Positions 18,388 through 55,991 of a stretch of DNA of 64,000 nt are shown piece by piece. The position numbers and the translations under genes are program-made. Under the pieces are notes generated by a model, which made no database searches, was not told the origin of the DNA, and saw only the letters and a program-made list of their open reading frames with translations. How positions within the stretch are numbered: position 1 is the first letter of the stretch; each line of letters opens with the position of its first letter. Source of the DNA: Escherichia phage V18; the sequence record NC_041937.1; one strand, 5' to 3'.

Positions 18388-19212
18388 TTATTCACCACCT
18401 TTCAGAGTTGCTTTAACAACCAGCTCTGGACGGGTGTTAACTGCCAGCATGGAAGTTTCAGATTCAATCTTCTCTTCACGCAGGTATGCAGAGTGTTTAT
18501 ACCACATGTACAGTTCCTGTGCTGGAGTGTTTGCTTCGTTAACATCGTCTGCCGGAGCAAAGTGCAGCTGGAACATCTGATCAATACCCATCGGCAGAAT
18601 GCGAGCTTCTTTCTTAGGAATATTGCCAGAGATATCTTCGATAAAGGTGATACCTTTATGCTCAAACACACGGTATACGCTGTCTTGACCGCCAGCACCC
18701 AGACGGCGACGCAGAGGTTCCTGAGCAGAGCCGTAATAGGTGTATGCCAGTTCTACCAGAGGGTCATACTGACAGGTTGTGTCACCAGGTGCATAGGATT
18801 TACCCAGAATAGCCTGGAACAGCGCTTTCTCACGCAGTGCTTCATGAGAAACACGGATACGGCGAACAACGCGGGTTACTACGTCCTGAACAGTTTTCGG
18901 AGCATCAGGTGTGAAGTAACGACGGAAGTTCTGAACATCTGCTGCGGTGATGCCTTTGTCCAGAGGGAAGAACGGGATGTTCAGGTTTTTAACCTGAGCA
19001 CGTTCACTACCAACGTAGTTACGCTCACCACCACGACGGCGTGCCGGAATGTCGGTTACAACTTCATCAACACGCTCAATCTGAGCAATTGTTGAGGTGC
19101 CGAGACGGGTTTCGAACAGATCCATACCAGTAATCAGGCGGAATTGACGCGGAACAAGGTCCAGAGTAGCACCTAAATCAACAATGCCAAATTCATCTTT
19201 ACGAGTAATCAT
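18388..19212 (-). CDS. putative major capsid protein
   Basis: 274 aa; strongly biased GC-rich codon usage unlike neighbours (high expression); downstream of portal and head ORFs; perfect 10 bp GC hairpin terminator follows. Confidence 0.55.
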   Translation of the reverse strand: MITRKDEFGIVDLGATLDLVPRQFRLITGMDLFETRLGTSTIAQIERVDEVVTDIPARRRGGERNYVGSERAQVKNLNIPFFPLDKGITAADVQNFRRYFTPDAPKTVQDVVTRVVRRIRVSHEALREKALFQAILGKSYAPGDTTCQYDPLVELAYTYYGSAQEPLRRRLGAGGQDSVYRVFEHKGITFIEDISGNIPKKEARILPMGIDQMFQLHFAPADDVNEANTPAQELYMWYKHSAYLREEKIESETSMLAVNTRPELVVKATLKGGE

Positions 19213-19296
19213 TTATTTCTCCAAAGTAAAATTGTAGCCAGCATCGCTAGAATCAACTTTGCCGAGCACGATATCAGAATATTGAGCGGTAATCAT
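19213..19296 (-). CDS. small upstream ORF (27 aa) preceding capsid gene
   Basis: MITAQYSDIVLGKVDSSDAGYNFTLEK; shares GAAATAAATGATTAC initiation region with the capsid gene; may be leader peptide or non-functional. Confidence 0.25.
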   Translation of the reverse strand: MITAQYSDIVLGKVDSSDAGYNFTLEK

Positions 19297-19380
19297 TTAT
19301 TTCCCCCGTTAAACTCTTATGCTTCAGCAGATCCAGATACTCTTTAGTTTTGGTTGCGTCCCTTGATCAGGTTCCCTTCT

Positions 19381-19728
19381 TTATCGAAGAGATCCCAGCC
19401 TACCAATACAAGACTCTGCGTCAGCTTGCGCCCATTCCCAATCAGGATGCTCTTTAGCCCAAGCCTCCTCTTCAATCTCAAAACCAAGCATGTGTGCAAG
19501 TGCTTTAGCATCATCATACCACATATCGAAGAAACGACGCAAGTATTCTTCAAAACTAAGCTCCACAGTAACTTGGCGAAGTGCCTTAACAATATCGTCT
19601 GTTAACTGCTCAGGCTTAAGATCACTCTTCATCAAAAGAGATACAGGTCTGTTGTTAGCGCTATAGCCTTGCGCCTTATGGCACAGGGCAATCCCCTTCT
19701 CTTTAATAGTAATCGTTTTTTCAGACAT
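19381..19728 (-). CDS. hypothetical head protein
   Basis: 115 aa acidic ORF between portal and capsid genes. Confidence 0.4.
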   Translation of the reverse strand: MSEKTITIKEKGIALCHKAQGYSANNRPVSLLMKSDLKPEQLTDDIVKALRQVTVELSFEEYLRRFFDMWYDDAKALAHMLGFEIEEEAWAKEHPDWEWAQADAESCIGRLGSLR

Positions 19729-21873: not shown

Positions 21874-23429
21874 TTAGATAAAACGCTTGAACATAGAAGG
21901 TGATGAGATTGATGGAATCACACAAGGAAGTGCTACCTCCTCTTTCTCCAGGAAATTAATCGCAGAAGCTACACAGTCGGCCCAGTCGTCTTTTCTGTTA
22001 AATGTTGATCTTTCCCCGTTGAATTTTTCAAGTTCAGTCAGAAATGCTTCCAGAGTATCAGGATGGAAACTGGATTTTACAATCCTCACCATTCCTTGTT
22101 GGGCAAGATTGGCAAAAGGTGAGAACCTTGTCAGTTTAGATTTGTTGGAAGGCATTGGGTCTTCTTCAACCCTAAACCCTTCGGCAAGCAAGGATCTGGA
22201 GGAGGTTAAGAACTCACTCTTACCTGCCTGACCGGGGTCCACAGAGAATACGATTATACAATCATCACCATCAAACTGCGCCTGTTTCCTGATGATCACA
22301 TCTCGTTCACCAGCCTTTTTACAGAACTTGCCTTCCAGACCTGTGGAATACCTCCCGTCATCCACGTTCTCAGGACAATAATCCCCGGACAGGTAATAAA
22401 AGCCGTCGCTATCTTTACTTACCTTGACACTGGCGGTAAAGTCAGGAAATTTATTACCGGAAGTTCTCTCGGTTCCTGCTTTATCCCATGCCCTGCAAGA
22501 CACTGATCCAAGGGGTACTCTATCGGCATCACGAAGGAAAGATCTTTGAAAATAGTTTGCACCCTCAGGCTTTGCAAACCAGTTACCATGGAGAAGCTGA
22601 GCTTTTTCAAGCTCGGGCAGACCTTCAAGGAAAGCAAGGTATTCTGGGTTGTCTCTTAAGCAGACAGGATTATCGAAGATTGTTGCGCCTATAAACGAGA
22701 ATGACAACGGTCTCGGCTTGATCTCTACACCCAGTCCGTTAACCGTGGTGTATTTCTCTATCAACTCTTCTTTAGAGTCTCCCCAGATAAATTCACCGTC
22801 GCGTCGGATAAAATATCTTTTCTTACCGCATTTCTCCGGATCTGGATACCCTTCATCGTCCAACCACCACCTAACCAGTTTGGCAAGCATGTGTTCTGAA
22901 TCGGGGTTACAGCTGATAACCATTCTTGATGGATACTTTGACTGAGATCTCAGACGAGACATCAGATAGTCTATCTGCTCCCATTCGAACTGCGTGCCTC
23001 ATCGAAGCAAACCAAGCAAACCATGGTATACTCAAGCCCTTGATGGTTAAGCTTATCTTGTACATACTCCATGTGGCAGTATTTTACAACAGCTCCCTTT
23101 TTGCTTCTATCCCACTTGCCAGTGTTCGGATCAAACCGTGGAAAAATGAACTTATGATCCTTCTCTCTGAACTTTGGCTTAATGTTTTCAGGCAGATCAC
23201 TATAAATAGCTACTGCTTTAGGCCATAGTCCACCCTCACCTTCCAACTGTGGGGTTGTTCTTCGGAACATAACCACAGAGCTGTGGGGGTCATCAATAAT
23301 TTTAAGTGGCATCAATTGCAAGAGGAACGACTTGCCAGACCCTGCGGCACCGCCGATTACCAAAATATCTGCATCGTTTTCGAGGATCATCTTCTGCTTT
23401 TCAGAACACGGTCCGTAAATCTTAGACAT
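21874..23429 (-). CDS. terminase large subunit, split into two frames (ATPase ORF 22971-23429, nuclease ORF 21874-22962)
   Basis: Walker A GGAAGSGKS and Walker B CLVCFDEA in N-terminal ORF; other frame continues ...EWEQIDYLMSRLRSQSKYPSRMVISCNPD after a single frame change. Confidence 0.75.
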
Positions 23430-24531: not shown

Positions 24532-24608
24532 TGGTCTCCACGGAGTGATTCGAACACTCGACCTCCTGATCCCAATGGTTTATCTCTACCAAGCTGAGCT
24601 ACGCGGAG
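24532..24608 (-). tRNA. tRNA-like gene, Pro(UGG)-like, with non-pairing 5' anticodon-stem strand
   Basis: Hand-folded: acceptor CTCCGCG/CGTGGAG, T-arm GAGTG-TTCGAAT-CACTC, encoded CCA, loop ATTGGGA, but AAACC cannot pair with TCAGG. Confidence 0.45.
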
Positions 24609-24619
24609 TATTTATTATT

Positions 24620-24694
24620 TGGTGGCCCTGGGTGGAATTGAACCACCGTCTGGCGATTATGAGTCGCTTGCTTGAACCTTCCAGCTACAGGGCA
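24620..24694 (-). tRNA. tRNA-Met (anticodon CAT)
   Basis: Hand-folded cloverleaf: anticodon loop CTCATAA, T-arm GGTGG-TTCAATT-CCACC, encoded CCA; position 1:72 is a T:C mismatch. Confidence 0.6.
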
Positions 24695-24770
24695 TGGTGC
24701 TGATAGCAGGACTCGAACCTGCAACCTATTGATTACAAATCAATTGCACTACCAATTGTGCTACATCAGC
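24695..24770 (-). tRNA. tRNA-Thr (anticodon TGT)
   Basis: Acceptor GCTGATG/TATCAGC, D-arm GCAC/GTGC, anticodon stem ATTGA/TCAAT with loop TTTGTAA, T-arm GCAGG-TTCGAGT-CCTGC, CCA encoded. Confidence 0.7.
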
Positions 24771-24867
24771 AAAAAGGTGCTAGGTGATGGAATCGAACCA
24801 CCTATGTATTCAACGACCAATAGATTTACAGTCTACACCGCTACCTCTACGGGATAACTCCCCAATT
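24771..24867 (-). tRNA. tRNA-like element with Tyr(GUA)-type anticodon arm; acceptor stem not resolved
   Basis: Anticodon arm GTAGA-CTGTAAA-TCTAT and T-arm GGTGG-TTCGATT-CCATC present, long variable region, but 5' and 3' ends do not pair; may be degenerate or mis-folded by me. Confidence 0.3.
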
Positions 24868-24942
24868 TGGCACCCCGTACTGGACTCGAACCAGTGTCAA
24901 CGGCTTAGAAGGCCGCTGCTTTATCCACTAAGCTAACAGGGC
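24868..24942 (-). tRNA. tRNA-Arg (anticodon TCT)
   Basis: Acceptor GCCCTGT/ACGGGGT with G:U pairs, D-arm GCTT/AAGC, anticodon stem GCGGC/GCCGT with loop CTTCTAA, T-arm ACTGG-TTCGAGT-CCAGT, CCA encoded. Confidence 0.65.
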
Positions 24943-27322: not shown

Positions 27323-27382
27323 TGTCCGTATCACGGACAGTTAGTGTCCGTATGACGGACAGTAGTGTCCGTATCACGGACA
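27323..27382. repeat. three phased palindromic repeats (iteron/operator-like array)
   Basis: TGTCCGTATCACGGACA at 27323-27339 and 27366-27382, TGTCCGTATGACGGACA at 27345-27361; 7 bp arms, 3 bp centre, 21-22 bp phasing. Confidence 0.7.
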
Positions 27383-32020: not shown

Positions 32021-32276
32021 TCTTGCTAAACCTGTAGAAGCACACCAGTTTGACGGAAGCTCTTCATCAGTATCTGATCTGCAACGGTGGATTGATACAG
32101 GTGTGTTTACATCGTCACCTGTTCGTACCAGAGATCTTCGTCGCATGTGTGAGCTTGTCGAGCCGTTTGGTAACCTGGTCTTGTACCAGGGAGATTGGTT
32201 AGTTGACTTTATGGGAGACTGGTTGGTAATGAGTAAAGAAGAGATGTTTAACATTTTTAAGGAAGAGGCCGAGTAA
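32007..32276 (+). CDS. hypothetical protein
   Basis: 89 aa ORF coupled to ligase gene (stop overlaps ATG). Confidence 0.4.
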   Translation: MPLFNLAKPVEAHQFDGSSSSVSDLQRWIDTGVFTSSPVRTRDLRRMCELVEPFGNLVLYQGDWLVDFMGDWLVMSKEEMFNIFKEEAE

Positions 32277-33598
32277 TGCATCAGATCAAAACAACACTGT
32301 ACGCACTGAACAAAGATGGCAGCTACCAACAGTGGAAAGTATTCACGGATGGTGATAAGGTTATCGTAGAGTTTGGCAAGCTTGATGGTAAATTGCAATA
32401 CAAAGAGACGATCTGCACACCTAAGAACGTTGGTCGCGCCAATGAAACTACAGCTGAGCAACAGGCCGAGCTGGAAGCGATCAGTAAGTGGGAAAAACAG
32501 GTCCGACTCGGGTACGTGGAGAGTATGGAAGATTGTGAGCAAGGTGTTGATCTTTTACCAATGTTAGTGCATGACTACCTGAAGCGTGGCAAGGCACTTA
32601 AATTACCTTGCTGGATCTTGCGTAAGTTAGATGGCCTTCGTCTACTTGTTGTTTTCCAGAATGGTGAGCCTAAATTTATTTCCCGTGGTAATAAATCCTA
32701 CCCTATTCAAGGAAAGCTTTTGGAGCAACTTCGCTCTTTCCACCTAACCACCGGGATTAAACAGCTCGACGGAGAGCTCTATATTCATGGTCTGCCTCTG
32801 CAGAAAATAGTGTCTCTTGCTAAACGGTGGCGCACACAGGAAGAAATTCAGGCCGAGATCGATAAAGACTACGAGGCAGATAAAAAACGCCGTCAGGCTG
32901 CGATTAAGGCAGGTTTAGCAACATACAAAAACTTCAACAAGATGGATATTCCTGTTGATGTTGATCCTGTTCGTGATGATTTGCGTTACGGAGGGTACTG
33001 CAGCTACGACCTAGAGTATCATATTTTCGATATCCCTAGCGATAAGGTGTGGTGGGATCCTGAAACAGAGTCTGGTCGCTGTAAGGATCTTATGGAGGCA
33101 AACGGTGCTATTACTTCTTTGATGCTTGATCATATTAAGGTTGTTGATGCAGAGCTTGCATATACGGTTGATCGGTGCGAAGAGTCTGTTGGTATATTTA
33201 TGTCTGAAGGATATGAAGGTACCATTATGCGTAACTTCTGTGGTAAATATGAGTATGGTCAGCGAACATCTGAAGCATTGAAATGGAAAAAGTTCAACGA
33301 CGCAGAGGTGAAAGTTATTGACGTTGAGAAAGATAAGAATGATGAAGGTGTTCTTATCTGTGTTGACAAGGAAGGTGTTGTTGTTAAAATGAAGATGAAA
33401 GGCACGCACGAGGAGCGTAGCTATGACAGGATGCAGGAAATGATCGGCAAGTTTGTCACCTTCAAATATCAAGCAAGGACAGAAGACAACAACTACCAAT
33501 TCCCGGAGTGGTGGGATGCTGTATGCGTCAGAAAATCCGCAGAATATGCAAAACATGATGATTCGTTGGAAGAGTGGTTTAATCGGAGGTTTAAATGA
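32276..33598 (+). CDS. ATP-dependent DNA ligase
   Basis: 440 aa; motif I KLDGLR, motif IV EGYEGTIMR, motif V KWKKF. Confidence 0.75.
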   Translation: MHQIKTTLYALNKDGSYQQWKVFTDGDKVIVEFGKLDGKLQYKETICTPKNVGRANETTAEQQAELEAISKWEKQVRLGYVESMEDCEQGVDLLPMLVHDYLKRGKALKLPCWILRKLDGLRLLVVFQNGEPKFISRGNKSYPIQGKLLEQLRSFHLTTGIKQLDGELYIHGLPLQKIVSLAKRWRTQEEIQAEIDKDYEADKKRRQAAIKAGLATYKNFNKMDIPVDVDPVRDDLRYGGYCSYDLEYHIFDIPSDKVWWDPETESGRCKDLMEANGAITSLMLDHIKVVDAELAYTVDRCEESVGIFMSEGYEGTIMRNFCGKYEYGQRTSEALKWKKFNDAEVKVIDVEKDKNDEGVLICVDKEGVVVKMKMKGTHEERSYDRMQEMIGKFVTFKYQARTEDNNYQFPEWWDAVCVRKSAEYAKHDDSLEEWFNRRFK

Positions 33599-34137: not shown

Positions 34138-34344
34138 ATGAAAGATTTTCTGTTGGCAATTTTGTTCATGGCGGCATGTCTGGCCTGTGGTGTAGTGTTT
34201 GCAGGTGAAACAGCGTATCTTGTCGATGTATATCGGGACAATGGTAAACGTATTTGCCTTTATGAGACAAGCCAAGGTGAGCTCTACGAGCTTGTGAAAC
34301 AAGGCGAGGCAGGTTCCTGCCCTCGCACCCATTTCTTTGAATAA
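34138..34344 (+). CDS. small secreted/membrane protein (signal peptide or lipoprotein-like)
   Basis: 68 aa; N-terminal hydrophobic segment LLAILFMAACLACGVV; preceded by sigma70-like promoter; could be lysis-associated. Confidence 0.4.
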   Translation: MKDFLLAILFMAACLACGVVFAGETAYLVDVYRDNGKRICLYETSQGELYELVKQGEAGSCPRTHFFE

Positions 34345-34353
34345 GGGGGATAC

Positions 34354-34817
34354 GTGGAAGACGGACGTTTAATGAAGTCTGAACGCAGGCTTATTGTGCA
34401 ACTGATCCCAGAAACAGCTTGGTATAATAACCTCCGAAACGCTGTGAAGGAGAGTGAGTGGGATAAGATCCGCAAGAAGTGCTATAGAGAAGCCAACTAC
34501 ACTTGTGAGGTGTGTGGCGGTAAAGGCAGCAAACACCCAGTGGAGTGTCATGAACTTTACACTTTCGAAGAGGGAGTGATCCGGCTTGTCGGACTGATAG
34601 CGTTGTGCCAGATTGTCACACATCGGTGCATCCTGGGTTAGCAAATATTCGTGGAAAGTATGCTCAGGCAGTTAATCAGTTGGCTAAGGTGAATAAGATC
34701 ACCAAAGGTATGGCAGAGGCGTATTACCGAGACTGCTTTGCAGAGTGGCGTGAGCTTAGTAAAGTTCCAGAGTGGAAGACTGACTTTTCGTGGATAGAGG
34801 GTTACCTTGATGGCTAA
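34354..34817 (+). CDS. HNH-like zinc-finger nuclease, apparent frame change near 34605-34641
   Basis: CEVCGG ... HPVECHE in first ORF; second overlapping ORF begins ...PDCHTSVHPGL (second Cys/His pair); together resemble an HNH nuclease. Confidence 0.4.
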
Positions 34818-35100
34818 GAGATCTGTAAAAGAGAAATTCGATAAGACAGCTTTTGTATTCGATACACCTCTGGACGATATCATCAGAGGTATGCAAGCCT
34901 TGTATCGGAAGGCTGAATCTGAGCAGTTGTCTGAATCAGAACTTTACTGGCTTGGTTGGTGGGAGTTAAACCTGCCTAAAGCTGAAAGTTCTTGTCTGAG
35001 AACTGTTAAAACGTGCGCCCAAGAAAACGCTGCACTTGGAATCTACCACAAAAGGAAAAGATCAACAAAAAGCTCTCCAAGAAAGACTAAAAAGTCTTGA
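34807..35100 (+). CDS. hypothetical protein
   Basis: 97 aa ORF with basic C-terminus. Confidence 0.4.
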   Translation: MMAKRSVKEKFDKTAFVFDTPLDDIIRGMQALYRKAESEQLSESELYWLGWWELNLPKAESSCLRTVKTCAQENAALGIYHKRKRSTKSSPRKTKKS

Positions 35101-35126: not shown

Positions 35127-35200
35127 CGGTCAGATATCTATAAACTAGGAGAACTAGATATGCTTAAATTTTTATTGTTGAAGATAAAGATATTGTCCAG

Positions 35201-35467
35201 TTGTATGCAAACGAGAATCATAAAGGTATGATTCTAAAGAAGGCAAGCAACCTTCATGAAAACACAATTCAACCTGGTGATGTAATTAAGATCTGTGGTT
35301 ATATGATACCAGACTCCTTGATGAAAATAACCCACCACTGGGGGTCTAATCCGTTCCTTTTTGAAAAGTATTGGGATGTTGAGTCACTTATTGCAGAGAG
35401 TGATGATGCCTTCCATTGCAGCATCCAACCATCTTGCAGAATAACTAACAGGAGGGTCTTTGAGTAG
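35201..35467 (+). CDS. hypothetical protein
   Basis: 88 aa ORF downstream of promoter 35097-35126. Confidence 0.35.
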   Translation: MYANENHKGMILKKASNLHENTIQPGDVIKICGYMIPDSLMKITHHWGSNPFLFEKYWDVESLIAESDDAFHCSIQPSCRITNRRVFE

Positions 35468-36599
35468 AGAATATCCACTTATTGAGTCCATAGATTGTCT
35501 GGCTGATCTTCTTGAACCTGACGCTATAGTTTATTATGACTTCGATCAGGTTGCATATCAAGCTGCAGCAAGTTGTGAAAAAAGGACAATTGAGGTAACA
35601 CACAAAGCCTCCGGACGTAAGAAGATGTTTAAAACACGAACAGAGTTCTGGGGGCGGCAGAAGAACACCGTTGGTGGTTGGTTAAAAGCTGAGAATACCA
35701 ACCGTGAAGCTGCATGTAAAAAGGCTGGCAAGGAGTTTATTCCGTGGACACGAGAAGATTTCGATGTCTTGGATATCCAAACCCCTGATCCTGTAGAGAA
35801 CTGCTTGCACACAATTAAGTGTAAAGCCAATGCAGTCCTTAATTATCTCGGTATTCCGGAAGATCGGTGCGTGGGGGTACTTGGAGGCACAGGTAATTTC
35901 AGACTAGATCTTCCCATGCCGGAAAGATATAAAGCCAACCGTAACAATACTCTTCGACCACTGCTGCTTGGAGATGCAAGACAGTATCTCCAAAAGCAGT
36001 ATAATGCTCAAGTGATCAACGGTATCGAGGCTGACGACTGGTTAGCTATCCAGCAATTTGAAGGTTGGAACCACTACCAAAAAACAGGTAAGTTCAACAA
36101 GTTTATTATCTCTATTGATAAGGACCAAAGAACACTACCGGGGCTTGTGTTCGATCCCATGCGAAACGATAAGGGAGATTTTGTAAGGGAAACCCCTATG
36201 CTGATCGATAACGGTATGGGGAACATCTTCATGAAGCCTAATGGAGAGGTTGGTGGTTACGGAATGCTGTTCTTCGGATACCAAATGCTGTGTGGTGACT
36301 CTGCTGACAACATCAAGCCGTATCAAGGACTTATCGGTAAGGGTAAGTTCGGAGATGCCTCAGCATTCTACCTACTGTCTCAGTGCAGCACTCCAAAGGA
36401 GATGTGGGTGGCTATTATTGATCAGTACAAGAAGTGGTTCCCGAAAGGTGTTGTTAAGTATACTGACTTCAATGGTATTGATCGTAGAATTTCCGTAGGT
36501 CAATGGATGAGTATAATTTTTGACTGTTTGTATATGAAGCGAACATTCAATGATCAAACAAAACTTGTTAACGTTCTTAGAAATGTTGGAGCAATTTGA
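35460..36599 (+). CDS. 5'-3' exonuclease / flap endonuclease (FEN/RNase H-like)
   Basis: 379 aa; GIEADDWLAI and IISIDKD acidic motifs typical of phage 5'-exonucleases. Confidence 0.6.
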   Translation: MSREYPLIESIDCLADLLEPDAIVYYDFDQVAYQAAASCEKRTIEVTHKASGRKKMFKTRTEFWGRQKNTVGGWLKAENTNREAACKKAGKEFIPWTREDFDVLDIQTPDPVENCLHTIKCKANAVLNYLGIPEDRCVGVLGGTGNFRLDLPMPERYKANRNNTLRPLLLGDARQYLQKQYNAQVINGIEADDWLAIQQFEGWNHYQKTGKFNKFIISIDKDQRTLPGLVFDPMRNDKGDFVRETPMLIDNGMGNIFMKPNGEVGGYGMLFFGYQMLCGDSADNIKPYQGLIGKGKFGDASAFYLLSQCSTPKEMWVAIIDQYKKWFPKGVVKYTDFNGIDRRISVGQWMSIIFDCLYMKRTFNDQTKLVNVLRNVGAI

Positions 36600-47689: not shown

Positions 47690-49808
47690 AAGTTGTAAAA
47701 CGGGACGGTAGAGAAGAGTTCTATAACGGAATTAAGGTGATCAAGGCGGCAGAGTCCGCCTTACTTGAGTCTGGACATACTGAAGAAGAAGCTTACCGGA
47801 TCGCCTGCGCGGTTAATGAAGTTGTTGCTAACAATCTACCAACCGACCAGTGCACGATCTCTGTAAAAAATATCCATATCCTTGTTGAAGATGCTCTTAT
47901 GGATATGGGTTTAAAATGTGCAGCCAGAGAATACATCCAGTATAGACAGACAAGAGATAATAACAGAGAGGCAGGTGGAAAACTGCTTGCAGATATTAGT
48001 GGCTTCTTGGATCGAACTTGTGATGAATTTACAAAAGAAAACGCAAATAAGCCCACTAATCATGTACACACTCATCGTGACCTGCTTGCAGGCATCCTTA
48101 GCAAACACCTTGCATCAACACAGATCCTGCCAGACCGTGTTTCAGAAGAGCACAATAAAGGCTTCATCCATGTGCATGATCTTGACTACTTGATCAGTCC
48201 GTTAACAAACTGTTGTTTGGTAAATTATCCAGATATGTTGGAAAACGGATTCAACATTGGCAACGCCCATGTCAGTAAGCCGAAGTCAATAGGGGTTGCA
48301 ACAACAATCCTTAGCCAAATCTCTAGTGCGGTAGCTAGTGCTCAATATGGTGGTCAGACTATGAGCCATATTGATCATTATCTGGCACAGTATGCTGAAG
48401 CGACCTATGAGAAGAACCTTAAATTTTGCCAGGAACATTGGTTGCCAGATGCTGAGACTGTTGCAATGCAAATGACAGATAAAGACGTGTTTGACAGCAT
48501 GCAGACGTTGCTTTATCAGATCAACACACTAACCTCGGTAAACGGTAACCCCTTTTATCACATTAAGTTTAGGTTTGGACACTTCGGTCTTTGGTAGAAT
48601 GATTACCAAAAACTACCTGAAAGTCCACAAAATGGGTCTTGGTGAAGAACGTATTACACCTGTGTTCCCTAAAGTGCTGTTCTTCCTAGAAGAGGGTGTC
48701 AACATGAACCCTGGGGATCCTAACTACGATTTGAAACGATTAGCTCTGGAATGCTGTGCAGAACGTATCTACCTGACTTCGTATCTGTACCACTAAATAG
48801 AAAAGTGACAGGCTCGACAGATGGCAAAGTAACGAGCATGGGATATGTAGAAGTTTCTTATCGAAATATAGCGACCCTGTAACAGGCGAGGAGAAATACC
48901 TTGGCAGATTTAACTTAGGCGTTGTTAGCCTTAACCTGCCAATGATTGCGGCAAAAGCTAAGACGGAAGGTGTTGATTTCTTTGCAGTTCTTGACGAATA
49001 CTTGGATCTTGCATACGAGGCTCACCTTGTAAGGGTTAATCGTCTAAAAGGAACAAAGGCGGGGCAGAACCCCATCATGTGGTGTGAAGGCGCTCTTGCT
49101 CGCCTGGATCCCGAAGAGAGTATTGATAAACTCTTCTATGACGGGTACGCTTCCATCAGTATTGGGTATATCGGTGTGTATGAAACCTGTCAGATTTTGG
49201 GTAGAGAAGGCGACAAGGCTTTAGCTCTTGGAATCCTTCAGCACATGAGAGATGCTTGTGAGCGATACAAGAAGGAAAGTAGACTAGCATTTAGCTTGTA
49301 CGGCACTCCTTCTGAGAGTCTATGCTATAAAGCTGCAACCTGTCTGGATCGTGAATATCCGGAAGTGTTGAAGCACGAGCATGAATATCTCACCAACAGT
49401 TTCCATCAGCCAGTATGGATAAATAGCTCTCCTTTTGATAAGTGGGAGTATGAGGAAGGTTTTGCTATGATCTCCTCTGGTGGCAACATCGGATACGTAG
49501 AGACACCTAACCTGAAAAACAACCTGGATGCTTTAGAGGCCCTTGTTGACTTCGGGTATAAACACATTATGTATTTTGGTATTAACCAACCTGTAGATAA
49601 ATGTCTCAAGTGTGGTTTCTCTGGTGAGTTCAGTGCAACAGCTAAAGGCTTTGTATGCCCAGAGTGTGGAAACCATGAAGAGGGAACGATCAGTGTAATT
49701 CGACGTGTGTCTGGATACCTTTCCAGTCCTAACTCCCGTCCTTACAATAAAGGTAAGCAAGCGGAAGTTATCGAGCGAGTTAAGCACTACGGAAGTTGTG
49801 GTTGCTGA
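47686..49808 (+). CDS. nrdD: anaerobic ribonucleoside-triphosphate reductase, interrupted by three frame changes
   Basis: N-terminal ATP-cone; segments resembling E. coli NrdD (ERIYPDF...KVTGS, CRSFL, RFNLGVVSLNLPMIA, glycyl-radical RVSGYL, CxxC zinc ribbon) lie in frames 1, 2, 1 and 0. Confidence 0.7.
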
Positions 49809-55530: not shown

Positions 55531-55991
55531 CGATGTTTGTTAAATATGTAAAAACGTGCCTCAACAGTCTTGGCAGAGAGCATTGGTACACCTTGCTTGA
55601 AAAAGGGGAAATTTTAACAAAATCTGGAAAGATAACTTTTATACATAGTAAAGGTAAAGACCCGTCACGACTTGTTATAGATGATTACGTTACAGGTGTG
55701 ACGTTCGAGGTCTCTGTGGAGAGGTTAATACGCAGAGCTGGCGGCCCTTATGACCGAAGAGAGTATGTTTTCGATTCCGTTACAGAGATGGGGGAGCATC
55801 CGTCTTTAATGTTCAGGATGGTAATCAGAGATATGAGGTCATCTATAGATAGGATTGTAAAGGACATTAAGGAACCTTTTAGAGTAAAAGTTAAGAAGTT
55901 TTTCGATTCTAAGATTAACATACTCGCCGTTGCACTAGGTGTAGTTCAACTTCTGTTAATTTTGCACTATTTTGAACTACTATTTAAGTAG
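55527..55991 (+). CDS. hypothetical protein with C-terminal hydrophobic segment
   Basis: 154 aa ORF; C-terminal ILAVALGVVQLLLILHYF. Confidence 0.4.
   Translation: MTMFVKYVKTCLNSLGREHWYTLLEKGEILTKSGKITFIHSKGKDPSRLVIDDYVTGVTFEVSVERLIRRAGGPYDRREYVFDSVTEMGEHPSLMFRMVIRDMRSSIDRIVKDIKEPFRVKVKKFFDSKINILAVALGVVQLLLILHYFELLFK

Follow-up and report, generated by a model that had tools for sequence, protein, structure and literature searches.

Does the pair of overlapping open reading frames (ORFs) at positions 34354–34817 of the deposited Escherichia phage V18 sequence represent a single nuclease gene and, if so, was that gene broken in the phage or only in its record? A preliminary description, made from the sequence, had taken the pair for a small HNH nuclease disrupted near 34605–34641 and had suggested that it might be the remnant of a homing endonuclease. 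Coordinates are those of the window, the 64,000-nucleotide stretch of NC_041937.1 that was analyzed, and the features mapped at this locus all lie on its plus strand.

Two Overlapping Frames and One Missing Base

The whole gene (34354..34817) is the ortholog of rV5 gp087 (YP_002003589.1, ORF 91, annotated “HNH endonuclease”) and encodes 154 amino acids once a missing C is restored. It measures 464 nt in the window versus 465 nt in relatives. ORF1 (34354..34641) encodes 95 amino acids from a GTG start, and ORF2 (34605..34817) encodes 70 amino acids in frame +2 (equivalent to −1) relative to ORF1. The two overlap by 37 nt (34605–34641), and their boundaries are exactly those given in the preliminary description.

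The proposal that they form one disrupted HNH nuclease gene is borne out, and the lesion can be placed within the overlap, at 34608..34609, where the window has a CC run that is CCC in all relatives. When the 464-nt stretch is aligned with rV5 gp087 and its counterparts in EduardKellenberger and bov10K2, the sole length difference is this one absent C; the window reads GTG-CCAGA (GTGCCAGA) where the relatives read GTGCCCAGA. The site falls between the codons of C85 (TGC, 34606–34608) and P86 (CCA), both of which are invariant residues. The loss of one C from the CCC run thus splits the gene into two overlapping ORFs, and its restoration yields a 154-residue protein that shares 98% identity with the unbroken orthologs, which form a cluster of 174 members. 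Compared with rV5 gp087 and its orthologs in approximately 117 Vequintavirus genomes, the gene occupies the same locus, with the same start, the same stop, and the same 8-nt downstream overlap, at 94–99.6% nucleotide identity. The closest comparison, with bov10K2 (99.6% identity), shows a single substitution (K33E).

A Shine-Dalgarno-like sequence (AAGGGGGA, 34343..34350), as read from the sequence, is located 4 nt 5′ of the GTG at 34354. This GTG is the annotated start in rV5 and slur16, whereas the V18 record uses the ATG at 34372 instead. Its product, V18_00090, has 89 amino acids and starts at M7, and ORF1 from M7 onward is identical to ASJ80443.1/YP_009602315.1.

Codons 1–85 of ORF1 are the true N-terminal part of the protein, harboring the helical N-region, the CxxC formed by C51 and C54, and the β-strand E64-C65-H66-E67, while its final 10 codons (QIVTHRCILG) are read through out of frame. 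ORF2 from 34608 is the true C-terminal part, with P86, the second CxxC (in which C85 would pair with C88), H89, H93, and a helical domain containing N114 and W141. For ORF2, the GTG at 34605 is unlikely to be a genuine start; no convincing start signal was seen for this frame, and it is absent from both the V18 annotation and the protein collection searched. The motifs first noticed in ORF1, CEVCGG (residues 51–56) and HPVECHE (residues 61–67), are present as described, except that the histidines of HPVECH are spaced as H-x4-H and not as H-x3-H. ORF2 opens with VPDCHTSVH, which contains the PDCH...H segment of the preliminary description.

The Repaired Protein as a Probable HNH-Like Nuclease

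In profile searches, the repaired protein is recognized by nine HNH PHROG families, and its assignment to the HNH group is supported, with caveats. The strongest match is PHROG 5200 (“HNH endonuclease”, E = 4e-72), which chance would not produce, followed by eight further HNH PHROGs at 5e-13 to 5e-3, namely PHROG 119 (5e-13, the best non-self match), PHROG 144 (4e-9), and six more at ≤5e-3. The Pfam HNH family (PF01844) scores 13.8 bits (E = 0.065), below its cut-off of 21.4, and the NCBIfam IscB HNH region is matched with E = 3.9e-4, far below the equivalog cut-off. With a 44-sequence family profile as the query, the top four PDB matches are all HNH nucleases (6me0, 5h0m, 5zmm, and 6ghc), although they are weak (E = 0.03–0.2). 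Of these structures, 6me0 is the En domain of a group II intron maturase, 5h0m is a phage HNH protein, and 5zmm and 6ghc are McrA. The evidence for HNH membership is mixed but leans positive.

In the family alignment, all 44 of 44 homologs share the four cysteines C51, C54, C85, and C88 (Cys4) as well as H66, H89, and H93; W36, D37, R40, E52, G58, V63, E64, E67, L84, P86, G95, N114, and W141 are invariant as well. H66 corresponds to the HH of the En domain in 6me0, and the CH(x3)H segment to its CHxxxH. However, the column of the canonical asparagine (“LDNLVLI” in 6me0) is occupied by Gly79 (“LVGLIAL”), and the central Asn of H-N-H is missing. For this Asn-less variant, HNH-like or ββα-Me is the most fitting name.

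A ββα unit formed by β64–72, β75–84, and α86–91, which is flanked by helical N- and C-terminal regions, is predicted by AlphaFold2 (mean pLDDT of 96.3, pTM of 0.90). A Foldseek comparison of the whole fold with the PDB gave no significant neighbor, the best match being DotN (E = 0.14), and a BFVD search returned mostly the truncated V18 protein itself, together with weak HNHc matches.

The protein shares with the Cys4 zinc-finger HNH/ββα-Me nucleases (6me0, 5h0m, 6ghc/5zmm, and IscB) the order of a CxxC, a histidine on β1, and a CxxCH on the helix, as well as the ββα topology in the model, and the sequence-profile matches are consistent with this relationship, though weak. There are several differences between them. 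The β1 motif is HPVECHE (ECHE) in place of their DH or HH, Gly79 stands at the canonical Asn position, and extra helical domains are found at both the N- and C-termini. The protein would thus be of the Cys4-zinc ββα-Me nuclease type, within a divergent and uncurated branch of it.

On the basis of these similarities, C51, C54, C85, and C88 may bind a structural zinc ion, with H66 on β1 as the putative general base and H89 and H93 on the following helix as candidate ligands of the catalytic metal ion. The helical C-terminal domain (residues 95–154) probably contacts DNA. The intact protein is probably a metal-dependent DNA nuclease that belongs to a replication/recombination block together with an exonuclease and EndoVII. 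Its role, as suggested by synteny, may be in recombination, in replication-linked processing, or in the breakdown of host DNA with the adjacent exonuclease.

A broader proposal, which we advance tentatively and at somewhat less than even confidence, is that rV5 gp087 and its approximately 200 homologs constitute a distinctive, uncurated branch of the ββα-Me nucleases, represented in Vequintavirinae by a domesticated core gene that is coupled to the exonuclease/EndoVII block. The marks of such a branch would be the HPVECHE strand, the missing Asn, and the private helical domains, with neither a Pfam family nor a PDB fold neighbor. If this is true, the gp087 branch in Vequintavirinae would be a nuclease of replication, recombination, or host-DNA processing and not a selfish homing endonuclease.

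Homologs also occur in other architectures and hosts. Some longer ones (~205 amino acids; P0053, P0061, P0083, and others) have an N-terminal DUF5710 (PF18974) fused to the HNH-like module, and chromosomal homologs are found in the cyanobacteria Acaryochloris and Gloeocapsa. The bacterial context of one homolog (P0090) gave no functional clue.

Gene Neighborhood

In rV5, the HNH gene sits between gp086, a small membrane protein, and gp088. The gp088 homolog of the window (34810..35100) encodes 96 amino acids of unknown function (PHROG 6208), with an 8-nt overlap (ATGGCTAA) between its ATG and the HNH stop. It is followed by the gp089 homolog (35160..35467), which is frame-broken, having lost one A (AAAA to AAA) at 35166; this lesion is of the same class as that of the HNH gene and lies 550 nt downstream from it. 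The 5′-3′ exonuclease, a homolog of rV5 gp090, is intact (35460..36599) and is a conserved downstream neighbor across Vequintavirinae. In rV5-like phages, only gp088 and gp089 separate the HNH gene from the exonuclease.

Distribution in Vequintavirinae

The window comes from a Vequintavirus, and at the nucleotide level 119 phage records match it between 34000 and 35200 at 90–99% identity. At least 80% of the gene is covered in 117 records, and all of the approximately 55 full-length relatives sampled carry a gene of 465 nt. The gene is present at full length in 117 of the 117 close relatives that cover the region, and no presence/absence polymorphism was seen among them. At the protein level, 238 phage records are matched, 117 of them at 95–99% identity and 121 below 60%, most of the latter being in other Vequintavirinae genera. 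In PVP-SE1 (Seunavirus), CR3 (Certrevirus), KpS8 (Mydovirus), and the Acinetobacter phage ABPH49, a homolog lies immediately upstream of the same 5′-3′ exonuclease, which is followed by two small genes and EndoVII. The homologs of these lineages (Seunavirus, Certrevirus, Mydovirus, and the Acinetobacter vequintavirine) retain 47–51% identity. Universal presence, retained synteny, and a divergence of ~50% point to a core gene of Vequintavirinae that is inherited vertically.

This distribution bears directly on the reading of the gene as a free-standing homing endonuclease or as what is left of one, the latter being the suggestion of the preliminary description. The idea has a basis in the literature and in the databases: mobile HNH genes are numerous in Vequintavirinae genomes (PMC7344957), many database records label this very gene “putative homing endonuclease”, and the region is an insertion hot spot, where EduardKellenberger has a homing endonuclease between the ligase and endolysin genes, and pangalan and CarlMeissner have additional genes. 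However, the mobile HNH genes of Vequintavirinae are patchy in distribution (PMC7344957), whereas this gene is carried, intact and syntenic, by essentially all relatives and by other Vequintavirinae lineages, its linkage to the exonuclease being kept even at 47–51% identity. Furthermore, none of the homing-endonuclease DNA-binding modules AP2, NUMOD, and IENR1 was found by Pfam, and the database labels are name transfers and not tests. A homing endonuclease, functional or decaying, is thus quite improbable here, and the many vequintavirus records that give gp087 this label are probably mistaken. A better description is a conserved core nuclease of putative function, which is how gp087 appears to behave. 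The gene is already known, being annotated in more than 100 genomes.

The HNH-AP2 homing endonuclease bas59_0189 of EduardKellenberger (PHROG 99) provides a direct comparison. Both are small phage HNH genes of the same neighborhood; however, bas59_0189 is sporadic (absent from rV5, slur16, and bov10K2), while the gene studied here is universal and syntenic, and the two differ in their PHROG and in their C-terminal module. A truly sporadic HNH element, unlike the studied gene, is the one that splits NrdD in slur16 (L004 39868–40401). It is absent from the window (48546–48599) and also from rV5_ev147, in which NrdD is a single uninterrupted CDS.

A trace of bas59_0189 is found in the DNA ligase ORF of the window (32276–33598), which has a chimeric C-terminus. 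Positions 33331–33504 match the EduardKellenberger ligase, after which the match jumps by 823 bp to the last 31 codons of bas59_0189 (window 33505–33598). The bas59_0189-like 3′ tail fused to the ligase overlaps the start of the endolysin gene. The chimeric product, V18_00087, has 440 amino acids versus 427 in relatives and is matched exactly in V18 only. The fusion is either a real homing-endonuclease remnant or another assembly collapse.

The ORF at 55533–55991 was considered as a paralog and rejected, as it has no Cys/His nuclease motif and is unrelated. The rV5_ev147 record names it “HNH homing endonuclease” and that of slur16 “virion structural protein”, and it has a hydrophobic segment at its end; the HNH label appears to be a misannotation. 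The copy in the window has a 6-nt in-frame deletion at 55645.

Origin of the Frame Break

The rest of the window bears on how the split arose. The window was compared with slur16 and rV5_ev147 over ~45 kb, and indels were counted if they were shared against both references. Frame-breaking indels are found in at least 13 conserved genes between 10870 and 51810, the HNH gene included. Frame switches in tblastn alignments occur in the tape measure (11560), tail completion (15502), gp114 (17907), large terminase (22997), RNA ligase (29598), hyp197 (~30051), HNH (34608), SAM methyltransferase (39684 and 39690), NrdD (48772–48863), and PhoH (51252) genes. At the nucleotide level, further frame-breaking indels are seen close to the ends of hyp124 (24224), hyp203 (26061), and gp089 (35166).

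In total, 40 indel events distinguish the window from both references, and 14 of them are clean changes of 1 nt standing in isolation (11 deletions and 3 insertions). Ten of the 14 lie in a CDS and one in a tRNA; this is roughly proportional to coding density and therefore leaves no trace of selection. In eight of the 11 clean 1-nt deletions, including that of the HNH gene, it is a run of 2–3 G or of 2–3 C that is shortened by one base. As a control, slur16 and rV5_ev147 were compared with each other over 48.7 kb and differ by only four 1-nt indels, all in long non-coding homopolymers.

Larger defects accompany these small ones. In the head-gene block (18764–19395), five deletion junctions are present relative to both references: a 183-nt in-frame loss in the major capsid gene, a loss of ~350 nt that removes most of the decoration gene, and losses of 367, 83, and 117 nt in the next gene. 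The head module looks like a collapsed, low-coverage assembly. The V18 record (129,454 bp) is also ~7 kb shorter than those of its relatives, and together the head-module junctions and the short genome point to poor assembly.

V18 (KY683736.1) is a therapeutic phage that has been propagated and counted as plaques (PMC13304965; PMC7431101). With a disrupted terminase or tape measure, no phage could form plaques, and it follows that the deposited sequence, and not the phage, is defective. The locus is very probably explained, accordingly, by an intact rV5 gp087 ortholog that was split by a sequencing or assembly error in the deposited V18 sequence. This error is deduced from context: one C of the CCC run would have gone missing from the record, and V18 itself most likely has an unbroken gene.

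Comparison of the junction across collections is consistent with such an error. The frame disruption is seen in the V18 record only, where comparable breaks affect essential genes. The 89-amino-acid V18 product forms a single-member cluster, whereas the intact form has 174 members. At an identity of at least 99%, the deleted junction is found in 0 of 109 phage records, and three metagenome matches all carry the intact 27-mer. Exact-pattern scans of IMG/VR matched neither the deleted nor the intact junction, so that this collection is uninformative here.

The alternative that comes closest is a genuine mutation in the V18 lineage, by which the gene would be a very recent pseudogene and the nuclease not needed for lytic growth under laboratory conditions. 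Nucleases of the HNH type are commonly accessory. The loss of an accessory nuclease need not kill a phage, and the other breaks could be errors while this one is real; the frameshift does stand in the deposited record, in which ORF1 is annotated as V18_00090. The lesion would also give a clean null, since it removes the second CxxC and both helix histidines: the ORF1 product would retain the first CxxC and the strand with His66 but lack Cys88, His89, His93, and the C-terminal domain, and it would be expected to be inactive. However, the same kind of lesion is found in at least 12 other genes, including those for the large terminase, tape measure, and tail completion. The gene shows no further decay (one missing C and the one substitution relative to bov10K2), the deletion recurs in no other genome or metagenome matched, and the retention of the gene at ~50% identity across Vequintavirinae lineages argues for selection. 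A genuine mutation is therefore unlikely, and the “disruption” noticed at first sight, as one of at least 13 frame-breaking indels, some of them in essential genes of a viable phage, is unlikely to be biology.

Programmed ribosomal frameshifting or slippage during transcription could in principle also join the two frames in vivo. The ORFs do share 37 nt, and a shift to the −1 frame at TGC-C would yield the full protein. However, there is no slippery heptamer, the sequence being G-TGC-CAG with a homopolymer run of only 2, and the gene is in a single frame in every relative, such that no recoding signal is conserved. Programmed frameshifting was rejected on these grounds and is effectively refuted.

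With the deposited-sequence error as the preferred explanation, the main value of the locus is as a data-quality flag. The V18 RefSeq/GenBank record seems to carry many indel and collapse errors, and neither the truncated “HNH endonuclease” (YP_009602315.1, which UniProt and BFVD also contain) nor the other split genes of V18 should be read as biology.

Other Differences in the Window

Several further differences were observed. In the tRNA region (24576–24942), ARAGORN identifies only three tRNAs (Met, Thr, and Arg), whereas the corresponding cluster of slur16 has seven (Pro, Met, Thr, an odd tRNA with a 4-base anticodon, Ser, Tyr, and Arg). Approximately 0.5 kb is missing from this region, and a 1-nt deletion is located at the Met/Thr boundary (24693).

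In the large terminase gene, a 9-nt tandem duplication (AAGCAAACC, present twice) lies beside the 1-nt deletion (22997–23013). In slur16, terL is divided into two CDS by a ~320-nt insertion, possibly an intron, that both the window and rV5_ev147 lack. Two further changes are intergenic: a 21-nt deletion relative to both references near 27353, and an 8-nt tandem duplication (AATGACAC) at 40580–40587, upstream of hyp178.
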